Source: Escherichia phage BYEP01
Sequence record: OR757453.1
Direction: 5' to 3' (one strand)
Length of the DNA stretch: 64,000 nucleotides
Under the pieces are notes generated by a model. It had not been told where the DNA came from and did no database searches. It saw nothing but the letters and a program-made list of their open reading frames with translations. Shown here one piece after another: positions 908-49,300 of this stretch; position 1 is the stretch's first letter; each line of letters starts with the position of its first letter. The translations under genes and the position numbers were made by a program.

Positions 908-1423
908 ATGGCATACTTTAATGAATGTTCACAACTGATCGAAGGCGCTGATAAAGCTCAAAATGAATACTGGGATATTCTCGGTGATGAAAAAGACCCA
1001 CTACAGGTTATGCTTGATATGCAGAAATCTTTGCAGGTTCGTTTAGCAAATGACCGCGAATACTGCTATCATCCAGATAAATTAGAAACTGCCGGTGATG
1101 TTGTTTCTTGGATGCGTGAACAAAAAGACTGTATTGATGATGAATTCCGCGAACTTCTGACTTCTCTTGGTGAAATGTCACGTGGTGAAAAAGATGCATC
1201 GGCAGTTTGGAAAAAATGGAAAGCACGTTATATTGAAGCGCAAGAAAAACGCATTGATGAAATGTCCCCAGAAGATCAGCTCGAAATTAAATTTGAGCTT
1301 GTGGATATATTTCATTTCGTATTAAATATGTTTGCTGGCCTTGGAATGAATGCGGAAGAAATTTTTAAACTTTATTATTTGAAAAATAAACATAATTTTG
1401 AACGTCAAGATAATGGGTATTAA
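908..1423 (+). CDS. 56: dCTP pyrophosphatase (dCTPase) gp56
   Basis: 171 aa from ATG at 908 with upstream AAAGG; sequence matches T4 gp56 as remembered. Confidence 0.85.
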   Translation: MAYFNECSQLIEGADKAQNEYWDILGDEKDPLQVMLDMQKSLQVRLANDREYCYHPDKLETAGDVVSWMREQKDCIDDEFRELLTSLGEMSRGEKDASAVWKKWKARYIEAQEKRIDEMSPEDQLEIKFELVDIFHFVLNMFAGLGMNAEEIFKLYYLKNKHNFERQDNGY

Positions 1424-2087
1424 ACAAAAATTTTATAGAACATATATAGTAAAAGTTAGGACGCCGAAAGGCGTCTTTTGGTACGCTGGGAAACATGAAT
1501 CATTTATTGTAAATCCATATGATGATAAATATCCGGGTTCAGGCAAAATACTATGGAACATATATCGTAAGTATGGTTTTAATTATAAAATACGTTGGTC
1601 AAAATGCCATGGTTCTAGAGAAAAATCATATGAAGTTGAACGCGAGCTAATATCTGCATTAAAACGTAAACACCCAGATACTTGCATTAATATTTCTCCT
1701 GGTGGTCAGGGTGGAGAAGGAAGAAAATGGACTGAGCAACAACGATTAGAACATAAACTTAGATTAAACAACCCTGAAACAAAAACTCGGATGAAGAATT
1801 CACAACGTATAGCCCAAAATAGAGCAGAACGAAAAGCTCGGCAATCTGAAGTAATGAAAAAGTTTTATTCAAATGGCGGAAATAAAAAGATTTCAGAAGG
1901 AACTTCAAGGGCGCAAAGAAAAGCACCGCATTGGCATGAACCACTTAAAAGCGAAATACACGAGTTATGGGTTTCTTTAGGTAAACCAGCAACAGGCCCG
2001 GTTGTAAAGGCGCTTAAAGGAAAATATGATGTAACAAGTTCAGCTCTTAAGAATTTAATTTACTTATTCAGAAAAGAAGATGTATAA
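1413..2087 (+). CDS. segF: GIY-YIG-type homing endonuclease, SegF-like
   Basis: 224 aa; start overlaps 56 stop; sits between 56 and soc as T4 segF does; basic C-terminal half. Confidence 0.55.
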   Translation: MGIKQKFYRTYIVKVRTPKGVFWYAGKHESFIVNPYDDKYPGSGKILWNIYRKYGFNYKIRWSKCHGSREKSYEVERELISALKRKHPDTCINISPGGQGGEGRKWTEQQRLEHKLRLNNPETKTRMKNSQRIAQNRAERKARQSEVMKKFYSNGGNKKISEGTSRAQRKAPHWHEPLKSEIHELWVSLGKPATGPVVKALKGKYDVTSSALKNLIYLFRKEDV

Positions 2088-2090
2088 ATA
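2083..2090 (+). promoter_or_regulatory. T4 late promoter TATAAATA upstream of soc
   Basis: exact TATAAATA about 30 nt upstream of the soc ATG. Confidence 0.55.
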
Positions 2091-2120
2091 ATCATGTAAT
2101 TTAAATAAAAGGAGAATTAC

Positions 2121-2366
2121 ATGGCTAGTACTCGCGGTTATGTTAATATCAAAACATTTGAGCAGAAATTAGATGGAAATAAGAAAATTGAAGGAAAGGA
2201 AATTTCAGTAGCTTTCCCTCTTTATTCTGACGTTCACAAAATTTCTGGCGCTCATTACCAGACATTCCCTTCAGAAAAAGCAGCATATACTACTGTATAT
2301 GAAGAAAATCAGCGTACTGAATGGATTGCTGCAAACGAAGATTTGTGGAAAGTAACTGGCGGTTAA
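2121..2366 (+). CDS. soc: small outer capsid protein Soc
   Basis: 81 aa ORF matching T4 Soc as remembered. Confidence 0.9.
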   Translation: MASTRGYVNIKTFEQKLDGNKKIEGKEISVAFPLYSDVHKISGAHYQTFPSEKAAYTTVYEENQRTEWIAANEDLWKVTGG

Positions 2367-2374
2367 TAATTCAA

Positions 2375-2398
2375 GGACTCCTTCGGGAGTCCTTTTTT
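2375..2398 (+). terminator. rho-independent terminator (UUCG hairpin plus T-run)
   Basis: GGACTCC-TTCG-GGAGTCC followed by TTTTTT. Confidence 0.8.
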
Positions 2399-2408
2399 CA
2401 TTTTACCG

Positions 2409-2438
2409 GTTTACTTTCCAAAACAAGTATGGTATAAT
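2409..2438 (+). promoter_or_regulatory. early promoter (GTTTAC ... TATAAT)
   Basis: GTTTAC at 2409, TATAAT at 2433, 18-nt spacer. Confidence 0.6.
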
Positions 2439-2464
2439 AGAATTATCTTATAGAGGAGAGCACT

Positions 2465-2671
2465 ATGTTAAATCGTTGGATTAAACCAAATGAAGATTTA
2501 GATATTATCATTTCACGGCATGTAATGAAGAAATATGAACTACAGCCATGGTCTACAGAAGTTGTTGTGCATTCATTTATGATGTATGCAGATGGTTCTG
2601 TCGAATTTAATGCAGAGATTCGATATGATTATGGTGAGAAGCAAGTCGAATTCAAGAGAGGCTTTTTGTAA
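2465..2671 (+). CDS. hypothetical protein (mrh.2 position)
   Basis: 68 aa ORF directly after early promoter. Confidence 0.4.
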   Translation: MLNRWIKPNEDLDIIISRHVMKKYELQPWSTEVVVHSFMMYADGSVEFNAEIRYDYGEKQVEFKRGFL

Positions 2672-3012
2672 TGTTTATCTTTAATTGGTTTAAAAGTTTC
2701 TTTACGGATTTTTTCTCTACAACTCCCGGAGAAGGTGTAGTTCCTATTTCAAATGACTACCTTCCTTTAACTGTAGTTGAATATGTTTATATGGGAGATG
2801 GAACAGTAGAAGCAGTTACTATGACTTATGAAGAAGCCCAAGAATATTATAAAAATCCTTGGCGCTGGTCAACACCTGCTGCATCATCTAATACGCAGAA
2901 TACACAGTCTAGTTCTGATTCATATGACACTAATGTTCCTGTTCATGTATGGACGGGCGATTCGTGTGGAAGTTCTTGTGATTCTAGTTGTTCATCTGCA
3001 TCTTGTGATTGA
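2671..3012 (+). CDS. hypothetical protein with Cys/Ser-rich C-terminus
   Basis: 113 aa ORF; C-terminal [15 protein letters not shown]; start overlaps previous stop. Confidence 0.4.
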
Positions 3013-3020
3013 GGAAAATT

Positions 3021-3506
3021 ATGGAAGCGATTTTGTTTGAAATGTATATTAGCAGTAATAGTATGTCGTTTGCTAAAGACGTTCCAATTACTGTAGCAGT
3101 AATGATTGATAAGGGTTATTGTGACCCAATGTATCTTGTAGAAAATTTCGTTTCAATGCCAGTTCCAGAAGATGCTGAAATAAAACTTAAAAAGATCGGA
3201 ATTATTGAAACTGTACCAAATATTCCGTTTAGAGCAATTGAAGCATTTACTAAATCCGAATACATTAATGTTAGCGCAGAACAATATAATGATAAGCCTT
3301 TATCTTTTTATTCGTACGATTCACTATATAGTTGGAAAATAGATAAAGGAAATAAATTTATAATTGCAAGTGAAGATGCTTTATCATACTTTATTTCTTC
3401 TATATGGAATAGTTTACATCCAAATTTGCTAAAAATTCATGAATTTGATGATGCTCCTACTGTTGTTTTGGGTAAAGTAAATGAAAGTTCTGAAGAAAAT
3501 GTTTGA
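3021..3506 (+). CDS. mrh: Mrh-like protein (modifier of rpoH phenotype)
   Basis: 161 aa from ATG 3021 with GAGG RBS; position and length consistent with T4 mrh. Confidence 0.45.
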
Positions 3507-3684
3507 ATGGTTCAATAGACCAAACTCAATGTACATTGATGATGGTTGGGTTGAACAAGCAAATAAAGAAATGCAGAACGAACCAGAAGAATGGATGAAA
3601 TCAATGATTAGAATTGAGAAAGAAAAGAAATTAGAACGCTCAGCGCTTAAATTGATGAGAGACATCTATGGGGATAAATCATGA
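3481..3684 (+). CDS. hypothetical protein
   Basis: 67 aa ORF. Confidence 0.3.
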
Positions 3685-40269: not shown

Positions 40270-41298
<1,029 letters not shown>

Positions 41299-41299
<1 letters not shown>

Positions 41300-41847
41300 T
41301 GAAACAATACCAATTTTTAATTAAAGATATCCTGGAAAATGGCTATGAAACTGATGATCGAACAGGCACAGGAACAATTGCTCTGTTCGGTACTAAATTA
41401 CGCTGGGATTTAACTAAAGGTTTTCCTGCAGTAACGACTAAGAAGCTCGCCTGGAAAGCTTGTATTGCTGAGCTCCTTTGGTTTTTATCAGGAAGTACTA
41501 ACGTAAATGATTTACGATTAATTCAGCATAATTCATTAATTCAAGGTAAAACAGTCTGGGATGAAAATTACGAAAACCAAGCAAAAGATTTAGGATATCA
41601 TAGTGGTGAACTTGGTCCAATTTATGGAAAACAATGGCGTGATTTTGGTGGTGTAGATCAAATTGTAGAAGTTATTGATCGTATTAAAAAACTACCAAAT
41701 GATAGGCGTCAAATCGTTTCAGCATGGAATCCAGCTGAACTTAAATATATGGCATTACCGCCCTGTCATATGTTCTATCAGTTTAATGTGCGTAATGGTT
41801 ATCTTGACCTTCAGTGGTATCAACGATCAGTAGATGTTTTCTTGGGT
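41299..41847 (+). CDS. td: thymidylate synthase, exon 1
   Basis: 183 codons ending FLG at the group I 5' splice site. Confidence 0.9.
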
Positions 41848-42110
41848 TAATTGAGGCCTGAGTATAAGGTGACTTATACTTGTAATCTATCTAAACGGGG
41901 GACCTCTCTAGTAGACAATCCCGTGCTAAATGTGTAGGACTTTGGTTCTACCTAAATGCCTAACGACTATCCCTTTAGGGAGTAGGGTCAAGTGACTCGA
42001 AACGATAGACATCTTGCTTCATCAAGATGGAGATATAGTCTGATCTGTATGGTGACATGCAGCTGGATATAATTCCGGGATAAGATTAACGACCTTATCT
42101 GAACATAATG
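41848..42110 (+). ncRNA. group I self-splicing intron in td, compact, no endonuclease ORF
   Basis: starts TAATTGAGGCCTGAGTATAAGG, contains GGGTCAAGTGACTCGAAACGATAGACA core, ends ACATAATG; 263 nt. Confidence 0.85.
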
Positions 42111-42422
42111 CTTCCATTTAATATTGCATCATATGCTGCATTAGTTCATATTGTAGCTAAGATGTGTAATCTTATTCCAGGAGATTTGATATTTTCTGGC
42201 GGTAATACTCATATCTATATGAATCACGTAGAACAATGTAAAGAAATTTTGCGTCGTGAACCTAAAGAGCTTTGTGAACTGGTAATAGGCGGATTGCCTT
42301 ATAAATTCCGCTATCTTTCTACTAAAGAACAATTGGAATATGTTCTTAAACTCAGGCCTAAAGATTTCGTTCTTAAAGGTTACGAATCACACCCTCCTAT
42401 TAAAGGAAAAATGGCGGTGTAA
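42111..42422 (+). CDS. td: thymidylate synthase, exon 2
   Basis: in frame after splicing: ...FLG|LPFNIASYAALV... Confidence 0.9.
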   Translation, partial: LPFNIASYAALVHIVAKMCNLIPGDLIFSGGNTHIYMNHVEQCKEILRREPKELCELVIGGLPYKFRYLSTKEQLEYVLKLRPKDFVLKGYESHPPIKGKMAV

Positions 42423-42445
42423 TTAATTATTAATTGTGAGGATAT

Positions 42446-42709
42446 ATGATTTTACGATTTAAGGATACTTCTGGCGTCGTTCTTTTTACACTTCCTAATC
42501 CAAGTGAGTTAGAAGTTCCAGGACCAGAACAGCCTATTATTATTTATGGCAAAAAATATTATACTCATAAAATGACTCGTGAGTATTTTGATAATAAAAT
42601 TTCCACAGTTAAAACTTCTTCTGATTGTTATTATGATATTACTGTTTTAACGGAAAAACAATATGACGAACTATTACCGCGCGGGCCGTCTATGCCGGGT
42701 AGTGAATAA
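42446..42709 (+). CDS. hypothetical protein (nrdA.2 position)
   Basis: 87 aa ORF. Confidence 0.4.
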
Positions 42710-42989
42710 ATATAAATCCGACTTTGATGTTAATATTCACCGTGGTACATTTTGGGGAAATTACGTCGGTAAAGATGCTGGCAGCCGGGAGGCTGCCATT
42801 GAATTATTCAAAAAAGATTTTATACGTCGAATTAAATCCGGAGAAATAACTAAAGCACATTTAGAGCCTTTACGTGGAATGAGGCTAGGATGCACATGTA
42901 AACCAAAGCCGTGTCATGGTGATATAATAGCTCATATAGTTAACCGATTGTTTAAAGACGATTTTCAAGTTGAGGACTTATGCAATTAA
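42663..42989 (+). CDS. hypothetical protein, possibly DUF4326-like (nrdA.1 position)
   Basis: 108 aa; C-terminal [12 protein letters not shown] motif. Confidence 0.4.
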
Positions 42990-44413
42990 TTAATGTTATC
43001 AAAAGTAGTGGTGTTTCTCAGAGCTTTGACCCACAAAAAATTATTAAAGTTTTATCTTGGGCAGCTGAAGGAACATCTGTAGATCCTTATGAATTATATG
43101 AAAATATTAAATCATATCTCCGTGATGGAATGACCACTGATGACATTCAGACTATTGTCATTAAGGCTGCTGCGAATTCTATTTCGGTTGAAGAGCCTGA
43201 TTATCAATATGTAGCTGCACGCTGTTTAATGTTTGCTCTTCGTAAGCATGTTTACGGGCAATATGAACCACGTTCATTTATTGACCATATTTCTTACTGC
43301 GTAAATGAAGGTAAATATGACCCTGAATTGTTGTCAAAATATTCAGCAGAAGAAATTACATTTTTAGAATCAAAAATTAAGCACGAGCGGGATATGGAAT
43401 TTACTTATTCCGGGGCGATGCAATTAAAAGAAAAATATCTAGTTAAAGATAAAACCACTGGTCAAATTTATGAAACTCCACAGTTTGCATTTATGGCTAT
43501 TGGAATGGCACTGCATCAAGATGAACCTGTTGATAGATTAAAACATGTCATTCGTTTTTATGAAGCAGTATCTACTCGACAGATTTCATTGCCAACTCCT
43601 ATTATGGCTGGTTGTCGTACTCCAACTCGACAGTTTAGTTCATGCGTTGTTATTGAAGCAGGTGATTCGCTGAAGTCTATCAATAAGGCTTCTGCTTCAA
43701 TTGTTGAGTATATTTCTAAACGAGCTGGAATTGGCATTAACGTTGGTATGATTCGTGCCGAAGGTTCTAAGATTAGCACAGGTGAAGTGCGTCATACTGG
43801 TGTTATTCCTTTTTGGAAACATTTTCAGACTGCAGTTAAATCATGCTCACAGGGTGGAATTCGTGGCGGCGCTGCTACTGCTTATTATCCTATTTGGCAT
43901 TTGGAAGTTGAAAATCTTCTCGTTTTGAAAAATAACAAAGGCGTAGAAGAAAACCGTATTCGTCATATGGATTATGGCGTCCAGCTGAATGATTTGATGA
44001 TGGAACGTTTTGGAAAGAACGACTACATTACTTTGTTCAGTCCACATGAAATGGGTGGTGAGCTTTATTATTCTTATTTTAAAGACCAAGACCGTTTCCG
44101 TGAATTATATGAAGCCGCAGAAAAAGACCCTAATATTCGTAAAAAGCGTATTAAAGCCCGTGAACTGTTTGAATTGCTCATGACTGAACGATCAGGAACA
44201 GCAAGGATTTATGTACAGTTCATAGATAATACGAATAACTATACTCCGTTTATTCGTGAAAAGGCACCTATTCGTCAGAGCAACTTGTGTTGTGAAATTG
44301 CTATTCCAACAAATGATGTGAATAGTCAACAAACCCGTTTAATCAAAATTAAGAAGTCGGATGTAGCTAAGTTTTATGAAGCTAATCCTGGCGGTATAAT
44401 TCAAAGCAAATAA
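42980..44413 (+). CDS. nrdA: ribonucleotide reductase large subunit, N-terminal fragment
   Basis: ATP cone; active-site NLCCEIAIPT; ends 28 aa after PTNDVNS in non-NrdA sequence. Confidence 0.85.
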   Translation: MQLINVIKSSGVSQSFDPQKIIKVLSWAAEGTSVDPYELYENIKSYLRDGMTTDDIQTIVIKAAANSISVEEPDYQYVAARCLMFALRKHVYGQYEPRSFIDHISYCVNEGKYDPELLSKYSAEEITFLESKIKHERDMEFTYSGAMQLKEKYLVKDKTTGQIYETPQFAFMAIGMALHQDEPVDRLKHVIRFYEAVSTRQISLPTPIMAGCRTPTRQFSSCVVIEAGDSLKSINKASASIVEYISKRAGIGINVGMIRAEGSKISTGEVRHTGVIPFWKHFQTAVKSCSQGGIRGGAATAYYPIWHLEVENLLVLKNNKGVEENRIRHMDYGVQLNDLMMERFGKNDYITLFSPHEMGGELYYSYFKDQDRFRELYEAAEKDPNIRKKRIKARELFELLMTERSGTARIYVQFIDNTNNYTPFIREKAPIRQSNLCCEIAIPTNDVNSQQTRLIKIKKSDVAKFYEANPGGIIQSK

Positions 44414-45227
44414 AGTACACAGACCGTTAATAATAAATAATCCATAACAAGAGGAAAAGTTATGGATTATTCTAAAATTTACAATAACCTTATTTCTAAA
44501 GCTAAGAATAGAAAATTAGATTGCTATACCGAATCACACCATATTATACCTCTGTGTATTGGCGGTTCTGATACAAAAGAAAACCTGGTAGATTTGACAC
44601 CAGAAGAGCATTACATAGCTCATCAATTATTAGTAAAGATATATCCAGATAATCATAAATTGATATTTGCCGCTAATATGATGTGTGTTTATTCTGAAGA
44701 TAATATTGAACGAAAGAACACCAATAAACGTCATGGGTGGCTTAGAAGAAAATTGGCTATTTCTGTATCTGAAAATAATAAAGGCAAACCGGCTTGGAAC
44801 AAAGGTATTCCTATGTCTCCAGAAGTTAAATCTCGACTTCAAACATCTTGGGTGTTTACATTTCCGGATGGTCATGAGGAAATTCATCGAGGTCTTAACG
44901 AATTTTGTAAAGAGCATAATTTAAATGCATCTGCGATGTCAGCCGTTTGTAAAGGTAAACGGGCGCATCACAAAGGATTTAAGTGTAAGAAATTGGATAA
45001 GATTTCAGAGCTTGATAATTTAGTTTTCGTCAGTAAACCTCATCCAAAGGGATTAAAACCCCATAACTTAATTGCTGTAAAAATAAACGGTATAGAATAT
45101 CAATCAATACATCGAGCATCTAAAGCTTTAGGAATTACTAGAAAAAAGGTAGAAGAATTAAATGAATATTGATTATGAATTTGTAGATGAATTTTACGAA
45201 GATGATGAGTATACTACAATAGAAGTT
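44327..45227 (+). mobile_element. homing endonuclease insertion splitting nrdA
   Basis: about 900 nt between NrdA-homologous segments; contains the HNH ORF; no group I core motifs; stops in all continuing frames. Confidence 0.7.
44462..45172 (+). CDS. HNH homing endonuclease (MobE-like)
   Basis: 236 aa; HNH core ESHHIIPLCIGGSDTKENLVDLTPEEH; AGAGGA RBS. Confidence 0.75.
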   Translation: MDYSKIYNNLISKAKNRKLDCYTESHHIIPLCIGGSDTKENLVDLTPEEHYIAHQLLVKIYPDNHKLIFAANMMCVYSEDNIERKNTNKRHGWLRRKLAISVSENNKGKPAWNKGIPMSPEVKSRLQTSWVFTFPDGHEEIHRGLNEFCKEHNLNASAMSAVCKGKRAHHKGFKCKKLDKISELDNLVFVSKPHPKGLKPHNLIAVKINGIEYQSIHRASKALGITRKKVEELNEY

Positions 45228-46151
45228 ATTGAAAACAGGGGAGAAGTGGGGCTTTGTACCCTTAGCGCATTTGTGTTGGATAACTTCGATTGGCAAGACC
45301 AAGACAAAATTAATGAATTAGCAGAAGTTCAAGTTCGTGCTCTTGATAATCTTTTGGACTACCAAGGATATCCAGTTCCTGAAGCAGAAAAAGCTAAAAA
45401 GCGTCGAAACCTTGGCGTAGGTGTTACTAACTATGCAGCTTGGCTGGCAAGTAACTTTGCTTCTTATGAAGATGCTAACGATTTAACACATGAACTATTT
45501 GAGAGATTGCAGTATGGACTCATTAAAGCATCCATTAAGCTCGCCAAAGAAAAAGGACCTTGCGAATATTATTCAGACACTCGTTGGTCTCGAGGCGAAT
45601 TACCTATCGACTGGTACAATAAAAAGATTGACCAAATCGCAGCTCCAAAATACGTTTGTGATTGGGACGAACTTCGATCTGAACTCAAACAGCATGGAAT
45701 TCGAAATTCTACTTTATCCGCGTTGATGCCGTGTGAATCATCCAGTCAGGTATCTAACAGTACAAACGGTATCGAGCCTCCACGTGGACCAGTCTCTGTT
45801 AAAGAATCAAAAGAGGGTTCCTTTAATCAAGTCGTGCCCAATATTGAGCATAACATAGACCTCTATGATTATACGTGGAAATTAGCTAAGAAAGGTAATA
45901 AACCTTATCTTACGCAGGTAGCTATTATGCTGAAATGGGTATGTCAATCAGCTTCAGCGAATACATATTATGACCCGCAGATTTTTCCAAAAGGAAAGGT
46001 TCCAATGTCTGTAATGATTGATGACATGCTATACGGATGGTATTATGGCATTAAAAACTTCTATTATCATAATACCCGTGATGGTTCTGGTACTGATGAT
46101 TATGAAATAGAAACTCCCAAAGCTGAAGATTGTTCATCCTGTAAATTATGA
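45162..46151 (+). CDS. nrdA: ribonucleotide reductase large subunit, C-terminal fragment
   Basis: aligns with E. coli NrdA from GEVGLCTLSAF to C-terminal CSSCKL; own ATG overlaps the HNH ORF end. Confidence 0.85.
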   Translation: MNIDYEFVDEFYEDDEYTTIEVIENRGEVGLCTLSAFVLDNFDWQDQDKINELAEVQVRALDNLLDYQGYPVPEAEKAKKRRNLGVGVTNYAAWLASNFASYEDANDLTHELFERLQYGLIKASIKLAKEKGPCEYYSDTRWSRGELPIDWYNKKIDQIAAPKYVCDWDELRSELKQHGIRNSTLSALMPCESSSQVSNSTNGIEPPRGPVSVKESKEGSFNQVVPNIEHNIDLYDYTWKLAKKGNKPYLTQVAIMLKWVCQSASANTYYDPQIFPKGKVPMSVMIDDMLYGWYYGIKNFYYHNTRDGSGTDDYEIETPKAEDCSSCKL

Positions 46152-46202
46152 TATAATTTGACTCATGGACGAGTCACCAACTATTAACTAAGTGGAAAAT
46201 TT

Positions 46203-46878
46203 ATGAGCACAGTTTTTAATACAAATCCAGTTGATGTTTTAACAGAACCTATGTTCTTCGGTTCAGGTCTTGGAATTGCACGTTATGATATTCAACGACA
46301 TAAGGTATTTGAAGAACTTATTGAACGTTCGCTCTCGTTTTTCTGGCGGCCTGAAGAAGTAAACTTAATGATGGATGCTGCACAATTTAACAAGCTCCCA
46401 GAACACCAAAAATCTATATTTATCAATAACTTAAAATACCAGTCATTGTTAGACTCCATCCAGGGGCGTGCACCATCTGCGGTACTTATGCCATTGCTTT
46501 CAGATCCAAGCCTTGATACATGGGTAGCAACATGGACTTTTAGCGAAACTATTCACAGTCGTTCATATACCCATATCATGCGTAACTTGTTCAATGACCC
46601 TGCTAAGGTATTTGATGAGATTGTACTAGATGAAGCTATCATGAAACGTGCTGAATCTATCGGTCGCTATTATGATGATGTTCTGACTAAAACCCGTGAA
46701 TGGGAAAATGCTAAAGAATTTACAGAACTAGCTAAAGAATCTCCTGATGCTGTTTTTCGTTTAAATCGAGCTATTAAACAAGAAGCCGAAGCTAAACGTG
46801 CTTTAATGAAATCTCTTTACCTCTGTTTGCACGTTATTAATGCCTTAGAAGCTATTCGTTTTTATGTATCTTTTGCGT
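46203..46878 (+). CDS. nrdB: ribonucleotide reductase small subunit, exon 1
   Basis: ends ...RFYVSFA plus one nt at the 5' splice site. Confidence 0.85.
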
Positions 46879-47182
46879 AAAATGCGCCTTTAAACGGTAA
46901 CGTTTATCGAAAACTCCTTTAATTGCTGGAAAGTCCTTTATAGGAAAACTAGCAGCCAAGGTTTTGCTTGCACCTTTAATTAGCATAATATAAATGATTA
47001 TACTTTTAAGAGGATGCACAATTGCAAAGCAAGGTTCAACGACTAGTCTTCGGACGTAGGGTCAAGCGACTCGAAATGGGGAGAATCCCTCTGGGATTGT
47101 GATATAGTCTGGTCTGCATAGTAATATGTAGCAGTTCATAAGAGAACGGGTTGAGAATTAGCGAGCTCAATCGAACATAACG
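46879..47182 (+). ncRNA. group I self-splicing intron in nrdB, compact, no endonuclease ORF
   Basis: 304 nt; core GGGTCAAGCGACTCGAAATGGGGAGAATCCC; ends with G; splicing restores FYVSFACTFNFHKNMEIMEGNAKI. Confidence 0.8.
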
Positions 47183-47685
47183 GTACCTTTAACTTCCATA
47201 AGAACATGGAAATCATGGAAGGTAATGCCAAGATTATGAAGTTCATTGCACGTGATGAGCAGCTTCACCTTAAAGGCACCCAATATATTATTCGTCAACT
47301 TCAATCCGGTACTGATGGCGATGAATGGGTTAAAATTGCTCAAGAGTGTGAACAAGAAGCAGTTGATATTTTCATGGAAGTTAACCGCCAAGAAAAAGAC
47401 TGGGCAGTTCATTTATTTAAAGATGGCGATGTTCCTGGATTAAATACAAATAGCATGTGGAGCTTTATTGATTACTTAACTGTATCTCGTATGAAACAGT
47501 GCGGTCTTCCATGCCCAATTACCGATGCTCCGGTTAAACATCCGTATCCTTGGATTCGTGAATACCTTAATTCTGATAATGTTCAATCCGCGCCACAAGA
47601 AGTAGAACTGTCATCTTACCTTGTTGCACAGATTGATAATGATGTTGATGATAAAGTTATGATGAGTTTTAAAAAATACTTTTAA
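47183..47685 (+). CDS. nrdB: ribonucleotide reductase small subunit, exon 2
   Basis: in-frame continuation; joined product about 392 aa. Confidence 0.85.
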
Positions 47686-47689
47686 GGAG

Positions 47690-47710
47690 TGGGCCGCAAG
47701 GCCCATTTTA
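47690..47710 (+). terminator. hairpin terminator
   Basis: TGGGCC-GCAA-GGCCCA then TTTTATT. Confidence 0.6.
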
Positions 47711-47712
47711 TT

Positions 47713-49300
<1,588 letters not shown>

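Follow-up and report, generated by a model that had tools for sequence, protein, structure and literature searches.

How a phage can keep the large subunit NrdA of ribonucleotide reductase (RNR) when its gene is broken in two by a homing endonuclease gene (HEG) is the question raised by the nrdA locus of Escherichia phage BYEP01. The DNA analyzed is a stretch of 64,000 nucleotides (nt) from record OR757453.1, referred to below as the window. It is a T4-like (Tequatrovirus) genome segment in which td, nrdA, nrdB, denA and rnlA follow one another. The favored answer, with a probability of about 0.85, is a split RNR of the type known from Aeromonas phage Aeh1, which would reassemble from two polypeptides through tails borne by the inserted cassette, the cassette itself being a mobile unit. 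The kind is already known from Aeh1 and coliphage members are annotated in GenBank; in the literature searched, no description of a coliphage split nrdA was found. The features concerned are listed here, with lengths in nt or amino acids (aa).

42980..44413, plus strand: N fragment of nrdA (nrdA-a), 477 aa, from the open reading frame (ORF) listing and Pfam
44326..44413, plus strand: N tail, 28 cassette-derived codons after NDVNS plus the stop codon, QQTRLIKIKKSDVAKFYEANPGGIIQSK and stop, from the junction mapping against phage W143
44414..44461, plus strand: spacer of 48 nt with a late-promoter-like box and the Shine-Dalgarno (SD) sequence of the HNH gene, AAGAGGA
44432..44439, plus strand: late-promoter-like box AATAAATA, a 7/8 match to TATAAATA
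44436..44471, plus strand: RNA hairpin with a perfect 13-bp stem, 44436..44448 pairing with 44459..44471
44462..45172, plus strand: predicted free-standing HNH homing endonuclease gene, I-HmuI-like, 236 aa, from Pfam, PHROG and a structure model
45162..46151, plus strand: C fragment of nrdA (nrdA-b), 329 aa, from the ORF listing and Pfam
45162..45248, plus strand: C head, 29 codons before GLCTLSAF, MNIDYEFVDEFYEDDEYTTIEVIENRGEV, from the junction mapping
45249..45266, plus strand: donor-type codons for GLCTLS, six native NrdA residues that include the C462 equivalent, as the right-hand co-conversion end

The preliminary description of this DNA had read nrdA as two ORFs, and the ORF listing and Pfam agree with it on both. 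The barrel is divided between them. Its first half is in the N fragment along with the ATP-cone and the all-alpha domain, and this fragment keeps the equivalents of E. coli C225, N437, C439 and E441 (in FSSCVV and SNLCCEI). Its second half is in the C fragment, which also has the C462 equivalent, the FYY tyrosines of radical transfer and, at the C-terminus, the redox pair CSSC. Since the Pfam RNR barrel profile is covered at positions 1-221 in the N fragment and at positions 220-523 in the C fragment, the cut is clean and no part of nrdA has been lost. To map the junctions, the region was compared with the nrdA allele of phage W143, which is uninterrupted and homologous over 42980..44325 (97.8%) and 45267..46151 (94.6%). 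In between, 941 nt of the window (44326..45266) replace 34 nt of W143, and the short native loop PDAEI is gone. Both the split of the barrel profile and this alignment place the break between the NLCCEI loop with the thiyl cysteine (C439) and the C462 strand GLCTLSAF, as had been proposed from the NLCCEIAIPT and GLCTLSAF segments. The alignment likewise confirms that the N fragment ends 28 codons into the insert and that the C fragment begins at an insert-derived ATG, 29 codons before GLCTLSAF. This ATG is preceded by AAGGTAGAAG (45146..45155) and overlaps the 3' end of the HNH ORF by 11 nt. The intact 236-aa HNH endonuclease ORF with its own ribosome-binding site, the remaining part of that description of the gap, is also found (44462..45172, with AAGAGGA upstream).

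The two cassette-derived extensions are of opposite charge, the N tail being basic (isoelectric point, pI, 10.0; net +4) and the C head strongly acidic (pI 4.1; net -10). In the GLCTLS codons, the window departs from W143 at 10 of 18 nt, always synonymously, so that donor-type DNA reaches slightly into the C exon. The same arrangement is present in 32 phage records, which amount to about 26 distinct Tequatrovirus/Mosigvirus isolates after removal of RefSeq/GenBank duplicates, and it is therefore neither a chance arrangement nor an assembly artefact. Apart from these isolates, the cassette is found in seven divergent metagenomic lineages.

Aeromonas phage Aeh1 is the host of a "genes-in-pieces" RNR, nrdA-a/mobE/nrdA-b, reportedly described by Friedrich et al. 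in 2007. A resemblance to this system had been noticed from the letters alone, and it proves to be one of homology. Both insertions lie between the C439 loop and the C462 strand, the gene order is the same, and the geometry is 477 aa/48 nt/236 aa/11-nt overlap/329 aa in the window against 473/46/237/14/323 in Aeh1. The HNH protein is 44.5% identical to Aeh1 MobE over 227 residues, that is, full length (E 2e-57). Furthermore, both systems have a basic NrdA-a tail, an acidic NrdA-b head, an overlap of HEG and nrdA-b, and a hairpin over the translation start of the HEG. The tails themselves align: the N tail of the window (...RLIKIKKSDVAKF...) with that of Aeh1 (...MLFKVKKSEVDKF...), where 0/5000 composition-preserving shuffles score as well (z 5.9), and the C head (...EFYEDDEYTTIEV...) with its Aeh1 counterpart (...EVYEDEEYTTVEI...), again with 0/5000 shuffles as good (z 7.6). 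Judged by site, geometry, endonuclease and both tails, the split nrdA of BYEP01 is a true homologue of Aeh1 nrdA-a/mobE/nrdA-b. For Aeh1, mass spectrometry has found both tails in the mature proteins, and the split RNR has full specific activity, with the oppositely charged tails being needed for a working (NrdA-a/NrdA-b)2-NrdB2 complex (PMC3045599). By analogy, the two NrdA halves of BYEP01 would be translated separately from one mRNA and would then reassemble non-covalently, and a functional (NrdA-a/NrdA-b)2-NrdB2 enzyme would depend on their oppositely charged tails. Crona et al. (2011, PMC3045599) reported no database match for the tails of Aeh1 and no split gene among 1200 nrdA sequences.

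The family has since become visible through its endonuclease. With the HNH protein as query against 5.8 billion proteins, full-length relatives are found at 99, 82, 79, 67, 66, 62, 58, 55, 55, 54, 53 and 49% identity, followed by Aeh1 MobE at 44%. The genomic context was checked for seven intermediate relatives, and each of them sits in a split nrdA of this geometry. A scan of IMG/VR with the HNH alignment and with the C-head motif as degenerate DNA returned Aeh1 as the only full-length relative, and the same C-head motif gave zero matches in JGI metagenome contigs. Searches by tblastn with the short tail peptides were blunted by low-complexity masking. The N tail of the window is homologous to those of eight other variants besides Aeh1, and over ten variants the N tails share the consensus xPLGxxKKTL[IV]KI[KR]KSDVxKFxKxYG... 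and the C heads the consensus M..EYEIVxEFYED[DE]EYTT[ILV]E[IV]....GE[IV]. The charge pattern holds in all ten variants, with a net charge of +3 to +7 for the N tail and of -7 to -14 for the C head. At the 34 best-conserved tail codons, the proportion of synonymous differences (pS) is near saturation (0.46-0.86), that of nonsynonymous differences (pN) is 0.12-0.28, and the ratio is 0.16-0.48. This pattern indicates that the tails are translated and constrained as protein, and it is a further argument against an intron. In addition, a GAGG/AAGG/GGAG element lies 8-13 nt upstream of the ATG of the C fragment in 10/10 variants.

The middle ORF matches the Pfam family I-HmuI_NUMOD-like (PF22083) at 8.7e-10 and the Pfam HNH family at E 0.0028, which is below the gathering score, as well as PHROG 655 "homing endonuclease" at 8.9e-59. 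Its sequence matches in the PDB are I-HmuI and the HNH motif of McrA (E 0.0034). In an alignment of 25 sequences, H26, H27 and N41 are invariant and H50 and H54 near-invariant. The AlphaFold model built from this alignment has a mean predicted local distance difference test (pLDDT) score of 87, and its best PDB match in Foldseek is I-HmuI (1U3E; E 1.4e-4, probability 1.0) over just 84 aligned columns, as is expected for an extended multi-domain protein. The ratio of nonsynonymous to synonymous divergence (dN/dS) of the HNH gene is 0.12-0.16 between cassette variants, which shows that the endonuclease gene is maintained. On these matches, the middle gene encodes a free-standing, I-HmuI-like homing endonuclease of the HNH type and is an orthologue of Aeh1 mobE. 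The putative cleavage target of its product would lie around AATAGCCCTGATGCTGAAATTGGATTGTGCACG in uninterrupted T4-type/RB69-type nrdA.

The start of this gene is enclosed in the hairpin, whose loop holds the SD and whose 3' arm holds the AUG (44462..44464). The minimum free energy is -13.8 kcal/mol (z -3.9), and a comparable hairpin is present in most variants. An alignment of six sequences contains three compensatory pairs, with both sides changed, and no core pair is broken; 92% of the alignment cells are paired, compared to 29-46% when the partners are slid. A perfect TATAAATA stands at the place of the late-promoter-like box in variants L103, L099 and L102, and the spacer is 98-100% identical among the E. 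coli-phage cassettes although their HNH genes differ by about 10%. The 5' arm of the hairpin holds this box, a layout also described for I-TevI, segB and Aeh1 mobE, where read-through transcripts of the early and middle periods are blocked in translation and late ones, which start inside the hairpin, escape the block (PMC2988022). The hairpin of the window, which buries the AUG, may likewise silence the endonuclease on early and middle read-through transcripts, and the endonuclease is probably expressed late, from a promoter inside the 5' arm of the hairpin. We infer late expression in BYEP01 from this layout.

Two further observations concern the spacer. A (T)GTACA(C/T)A motif directly follows the stop codon of the N fragment in 10/10 cassette variants (44415..44422 in the window), upstream of the late-promoter box; it may serve in processing, as an operator or as part of a promoter. 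A 3-nt insertion, AAT (44428..44430), sets the window apart from 236Ecol005PP, HY01, F2 and AV111 in an otherwise invariant spacer, and lies shortly before the late-promoter-like box.

Movement of the cassette can be read from its presence in two nrdA lineages, one T4-type (the window, HY01, 236Ecol005PP) and one RB69-type (AV111, F2). The nrdA cores of the two are 77-80% identical, as are those of the window and uninterrupted RB69. Over the cassette, identity between the same lineages is 98.9% in the N tail, 98-100% in the spacer, 94-98% in the C head and 88-91% in the HNH gene, and the boundaries are sharp. Synonymous divergence (dS) between lineages is 0.34-0.41 in the HNH gene versus 1.2-2.6 in nrdA. 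Each lineage also has an uninterrupted allele (W143 and RB69, respectively) with flanks that are 97-98% identical. There are two HNH variants, each of them present in both nrdA backgrounds, and the right-hand donor-type end (GLCTLS) is complete in F2, in an RB69-type background, and hybrid in HY01 and AV111. Taken together, the identity contrast, the sharp boundaries and the variable right end are the signature expected of homing with co-conversion of the whole tail-HEG-tail unit. The cassette, to judge from these comparisons, is a unit that has moved between nrdA lineages as one tail-HEG-tail piece. What moves would be a cassette in the NLCCEI-GLCTLSAF loop, made up of the basic N tail, a stop codon, a spacer with promoter and hairpin, the HNH gene and the acidic C head. 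It would spread by homing as one unit, bringing the tails into short-loop nrdA alleles.

Several points weigh against a split RNR that reassembles and spreads in this way. At deep divergence, the identity of the HNH protein tracks that of NrdA (HNH/NrdA 67/76, 58/74, 53/64 and 44/51%), so that much of the family history may be vertical rather than due to homing. This tracking across the family is also what favors the proposal that the cassette is an ancient, purely vertical feature lost by most T4-like lineages, with an endonuclease that no longer homes. The proposal is considered unlikely, as the cassette shared by T4-type and RB69-type phages is by the above dS values far younger than its gene, its tails are 98.9% identical next to flanks of 77% with sharp identity boundaries, the co-conversion end varies, both HNH variants occur in both backgrounds, and the HNH ORF is intact and under purifying selection. 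The data suggest a long association of HNH gene and nrdA punctuated by transfers. T4 nrdA is, moreover, dispensable in the laboratory, which means that essentiality may not be assumed and that the argument rests on dN/dS. T4 nrd mutants are generally known to be viable on hosts with an active RNR, and the fragments are unannotated or "hypothetical" in some records (HY01, SH-2), both of which would agree with an nrdA inactivated by a selfish insertion, the fragments being decaying halves of a pseudogene in a phage that relies on the host NrdAB. Such decay is very improbable in view of two intact fragments with all catalytic residues, a dN/dS of 0.01-0.11 between interrupted alleles, frames that stay open in 10 lineages with NrdA identities down to 51%, purifying selection on the tails and the full specific activity of the Aeh1 homologue (PMC3045599). 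As for expression, the box of the window matches the T4 late box at only 7/8 positions, and a simple scan for sigma-70 promoters and terminators gave neither an enrichment nor a convincing site within the cassette. Finally, the reading extrapolates from Aeh1 or from sequence as regards the activity of the RNR and of the endonuclease, the function of the tails, homing and the absence of splicing.

Restoration of a continuous NrdA, at the level of either RNA or protein, would be the other way out of the disruption. A self-splicing group I or II intron with an endonuclease ORF would yield a spliced mRNA for continuous NrdA, like td/I-TevI and nrdB/I-TevIII in T4. T-even RNR genes are classic intron hosts, td and nrdB of this very window contain group I introns, and a conserved active-site region is a typical intron homing site. 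However, an Rfam scan of 40500..49000 at E<=1 gave no match in the nrdA insert, whereas it recovered RF00028 in td (41838..42062, 64 bits) and in nrdB (46862..47131, 69 bits) as positive controls. With the insert alone at E<=10, only chance-level matches far under the gathering scores were obtained and no group I or II intron family; the Rfam models for group II domains V/VI and D1-D4 remained unmatched in the insert at this threshold. This is the covariance-model search that the preliminary description had proposed, run through Rfam. Furthermore, the would-be intronic sequence is conserved as protein in the exon frames of 10 variants (pN/pS 0.16-0.48), the stop codon, the start codon and the SD of the C fragment are all conserved, and the mature Aeh1 proteins carry both tails (PMC3045599). 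An intron is thus extremely improbable. The same holds for a split intein, in which the tails would be N- and C-intein halves that join the two parts of NrdA by trans-splicing. There are precedents in nrdA genes that are fractured by a split intein accompanied by a free-standing endonuclease (PMC2677866), the metagenomic L038 being an example, the charge complementarity of the tails resembles that of split-intein halves, and an origin from a degenerate intein has been raised by Crona et al. (PMC3045599). But the tails have just 28-29 aa, the first tail residue is not Cys, Ser or Thr, and no HN precedes a +1 nucleophile. Neither nrdA fragment matches the Pfam Intein_splicing/PT-HINT (Hint) families at E<=0.01, although the same library picks up both intein halves in the split-intein nrdA of L038 as a positive control, and the Aeh1 proteins retain their tails at maturity. 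The earlier judgment that the insert is neither an intein nor an obvious intron therefore stands on the Rfam and Hint negatives with their positive controls and on the stop codon after the N tail. The results from sequence all agree with two fragments that would be translated independently, with splicing of neither RNA nor protein.

With the Aeh1-type split RNR as the preferred reading, the origin of its tails can be approached through the NrdA of Acinetobacter phages. Acinetobacter phage ZZ1 (L006, nrdA 1211..3622) has a continuous NrdA of 803 aa with a loop of about 55 aa at exactly the site of the cassette. The same loop is found in at least 66 records of Acinetobacter T4-like phages, diverging to about 50% identity. 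Homology of the N tails extends, in register, over residues 1-33 of the loop: the N tail of L104 aligns to the ZZ1 loop with a score of 66 (z 11.8, 0/5000 shuffles), a comparison by hhalign restricted to tails and loops gives a P of 1e-6 and sets columns 2-33 on columns 2-33, and a hidden Markov model (HMM) of the N tail scores ZZ1 at 14.4 bits, where the maximum in 2000 shuffles is 9.5. Of the N tails, that of L105 is the longest and resembles ZZ1 most, and no other NrdA core is as close to that of ZZ1 as the core of L105 (74%). For the acidic C head against the second half of the loop, HMM scores lie within those of shuffles, pairwise z values are 0.4-2.7, and hhalign joins the last 10 residues only (P 0.037). 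On this evidence, homology to the Acinetobacter loop is claimed for the N half only; the charge asymmetry of the loop is also much weaker than that of the tails. The literature that was searched, not with searches aimed at the loop, contained no description of an Acinetobacter NrdA insertion of about 55 aa (L006, L009-L012).

These observations lean somewhat toward a mobile unit that is a self-contained tail-HEG-tail module with a protein-level antidote, namely the two halves of a small NrdA loop domain, rather than toward tails of random foreign DNA. One possibility is that the endonuclease invaded a loop domain already present, whose halves could still associate, and then exported these halves to short-loop alleles such as that of T4; the other is that the Acinetobacter loop is the in-frame scar left by deletion of the endonuclease gene. 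In both cases, the view of the Aeh1 era, in which the tails are arbitrary foreign DNA, needs to be revised. If true, homing elements would have, in addition to introns and inteins, a third means of neutralizing their insertion into an essential gene, with an evolutionary path that joins split and continuous forms.

Beyond the preliminary description, the tails emerge as conserved parts of the element, the element as widespread and recently mobile, and a relative of it is seen in the loop of a continuous NrdA. The split RNR of Aeh1 had hitherto been an isolated curiosity, known from an Aeromonas phage that does not lend itself easily to manipulation, and was read as a one-off transposition with tails of unknown origin; what is new here is a tractable host together with observations at the level of a family. 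A T4-type coliphage element with near-isogenic uninterrupted relatives (98% flanks) opens the genetics of T4 and E. coli to the homing of the module, its cut site, the sufficiency of the tails and their origin. The tails may also be seen as a natural, evolved pair of short charge-complementary peptides that would reassemble a split radical enzyme. There is an annotation problem as well, since pipelines have missed the split nrdA in several deposited genomes; KF925357 (HY01), PQ642267 (SH-2) and PQ642266 (SH-1) are among those that leave the fragments unannotated or "hypothetical".

In comparison with Aeh1, the main differences lie in host, context and control. The window belongs to the E. coli Tequatrovirus/Mosigvirus clade and Aeh1 to Cinqassovirus, and nrdA in the window, unlike that of Aeh1, is part of the td-nrdA-nrdB block of T4. 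What the hairpin buries is the AUG in the window and the SD in Aeh1. Aeh1 was described as a unique transposition-like event without tail matches, whereas the element of the window is part of a multi-lineage and recently transferred family. The biochemistry is known for Aeh1, and the phage of the window is known here from its sequence.

The HNH gene is also to be distinguished from mobE of T4, a free-standing HNH gene between nrdA and nrdB (Wilson & Edgell 2009, PMC2790892). T4 mobE likewise belongs to PHROG 655, has a similar N-terminal HNH domain and is associated with the nrd operon, but it is intergenic, leaves nrdA intact and targets nrdB, and its C-terminal DNA-binding part cannot be aligned with the HNH protein of the window. 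The latter is 51% identical, over residues 1-99, to the product of the gene at the intergenic mobE position of KAW1E185. An identity with T4 mobE proper was ruled out, as the gene of the window lies inside nrdA and only its N-terminal 100 aa or so align with the intergenic genes. STML-198 and KAW1E185, in which the HNH match overlapped the nrdA annotation, were considered as further split nrdA genes and rejected, since theirs is the ordinary intergenic mobE position. Only 51 nt (46152..46202) separate nrdA-b from nrdB in the window, and the intergenic mobE of T4 is therefore absent. Three metagenomic variants have a second gene at the intergenic position in addition to the intragenic cassette, L100 (4669..5310), L102 (2219..2995) and L103 (4729..5493); of these genes, that of L100 alone was shown to be an endonuclease gene (PHROG 655).

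A second T4 parallel is formed by genes 39/60, where the HNH homing endonuclease gene mobA also splits an essential enzyme and similar charged, tail-like extensions occur (PMC3045599), although the gene is a different one and gene 60 uses translational bypassing in addition. In fractured genes, split inteins are combined with a free-standing endonuclease (Dassa et al. 2009, PMC2677866). The fractured nrdA of the L038 type equally consists of two ORFs with an endonuclease gene between them in the active-site region, but it is split at NLC|C, has recognizable intein halves and a GIY-YIG enzyme, and protein trans-splicing is expected, whereas the window is without an intein signal and its fragments would stay separate. 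Viral contigs with Dassa-type nrdA genes, fractured at NLC|C by a split intein together with a free-standing GIY-YIG gene and with an HNH gene downstream of nrdA, are L036, L038-L040, L042 and L043 (e.g. L038 30..2957). In L103 (1107..4687), the cassette-bearing nrdA also has a full intein at NLC|C in its N fragment (614-aa product, PT-HINT/Intein_splicing), which makes two different mobile elements about 12 codons apart. In a metagenomic nrdA, L035 (257..2944), the break falls at the barrel position seen in the window (Pfam 220/223), and the inserted ORF is another one, of 235 aa, with a GIY-YIG-like N-terminus and no Pfam match. Its N tail of 53 aa is unrelated to the cassette family, and a C-terminal intein half lies upstream in the same gene. 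This case suggests that the NrdA loop is a repeatedly used insertion site.

The last comparison is with group I introns, which the window itself contains. Its td (41287..42422) has a short group I intron without an endonuclease ORF; the td intron of T4 carries I-TevI. The nrdB of the window (46203..47685) also has a short, ORF-less group I intron, so that together with the nrdA cassette three adjacent genes of nucleotide metabolism are all interrupted, by two kinds of element. The group I introns of T-even td, nrdB and nrdD share with the cassette a mobile endonuclease in a gene of nucleotide metabolism and control by a late promoter in a hairpin (PMC2988022). Unlike them, the cassette has no ribozyme, and the disruption of its host gene would be neutralized at the level of the protein instead of the RNA.

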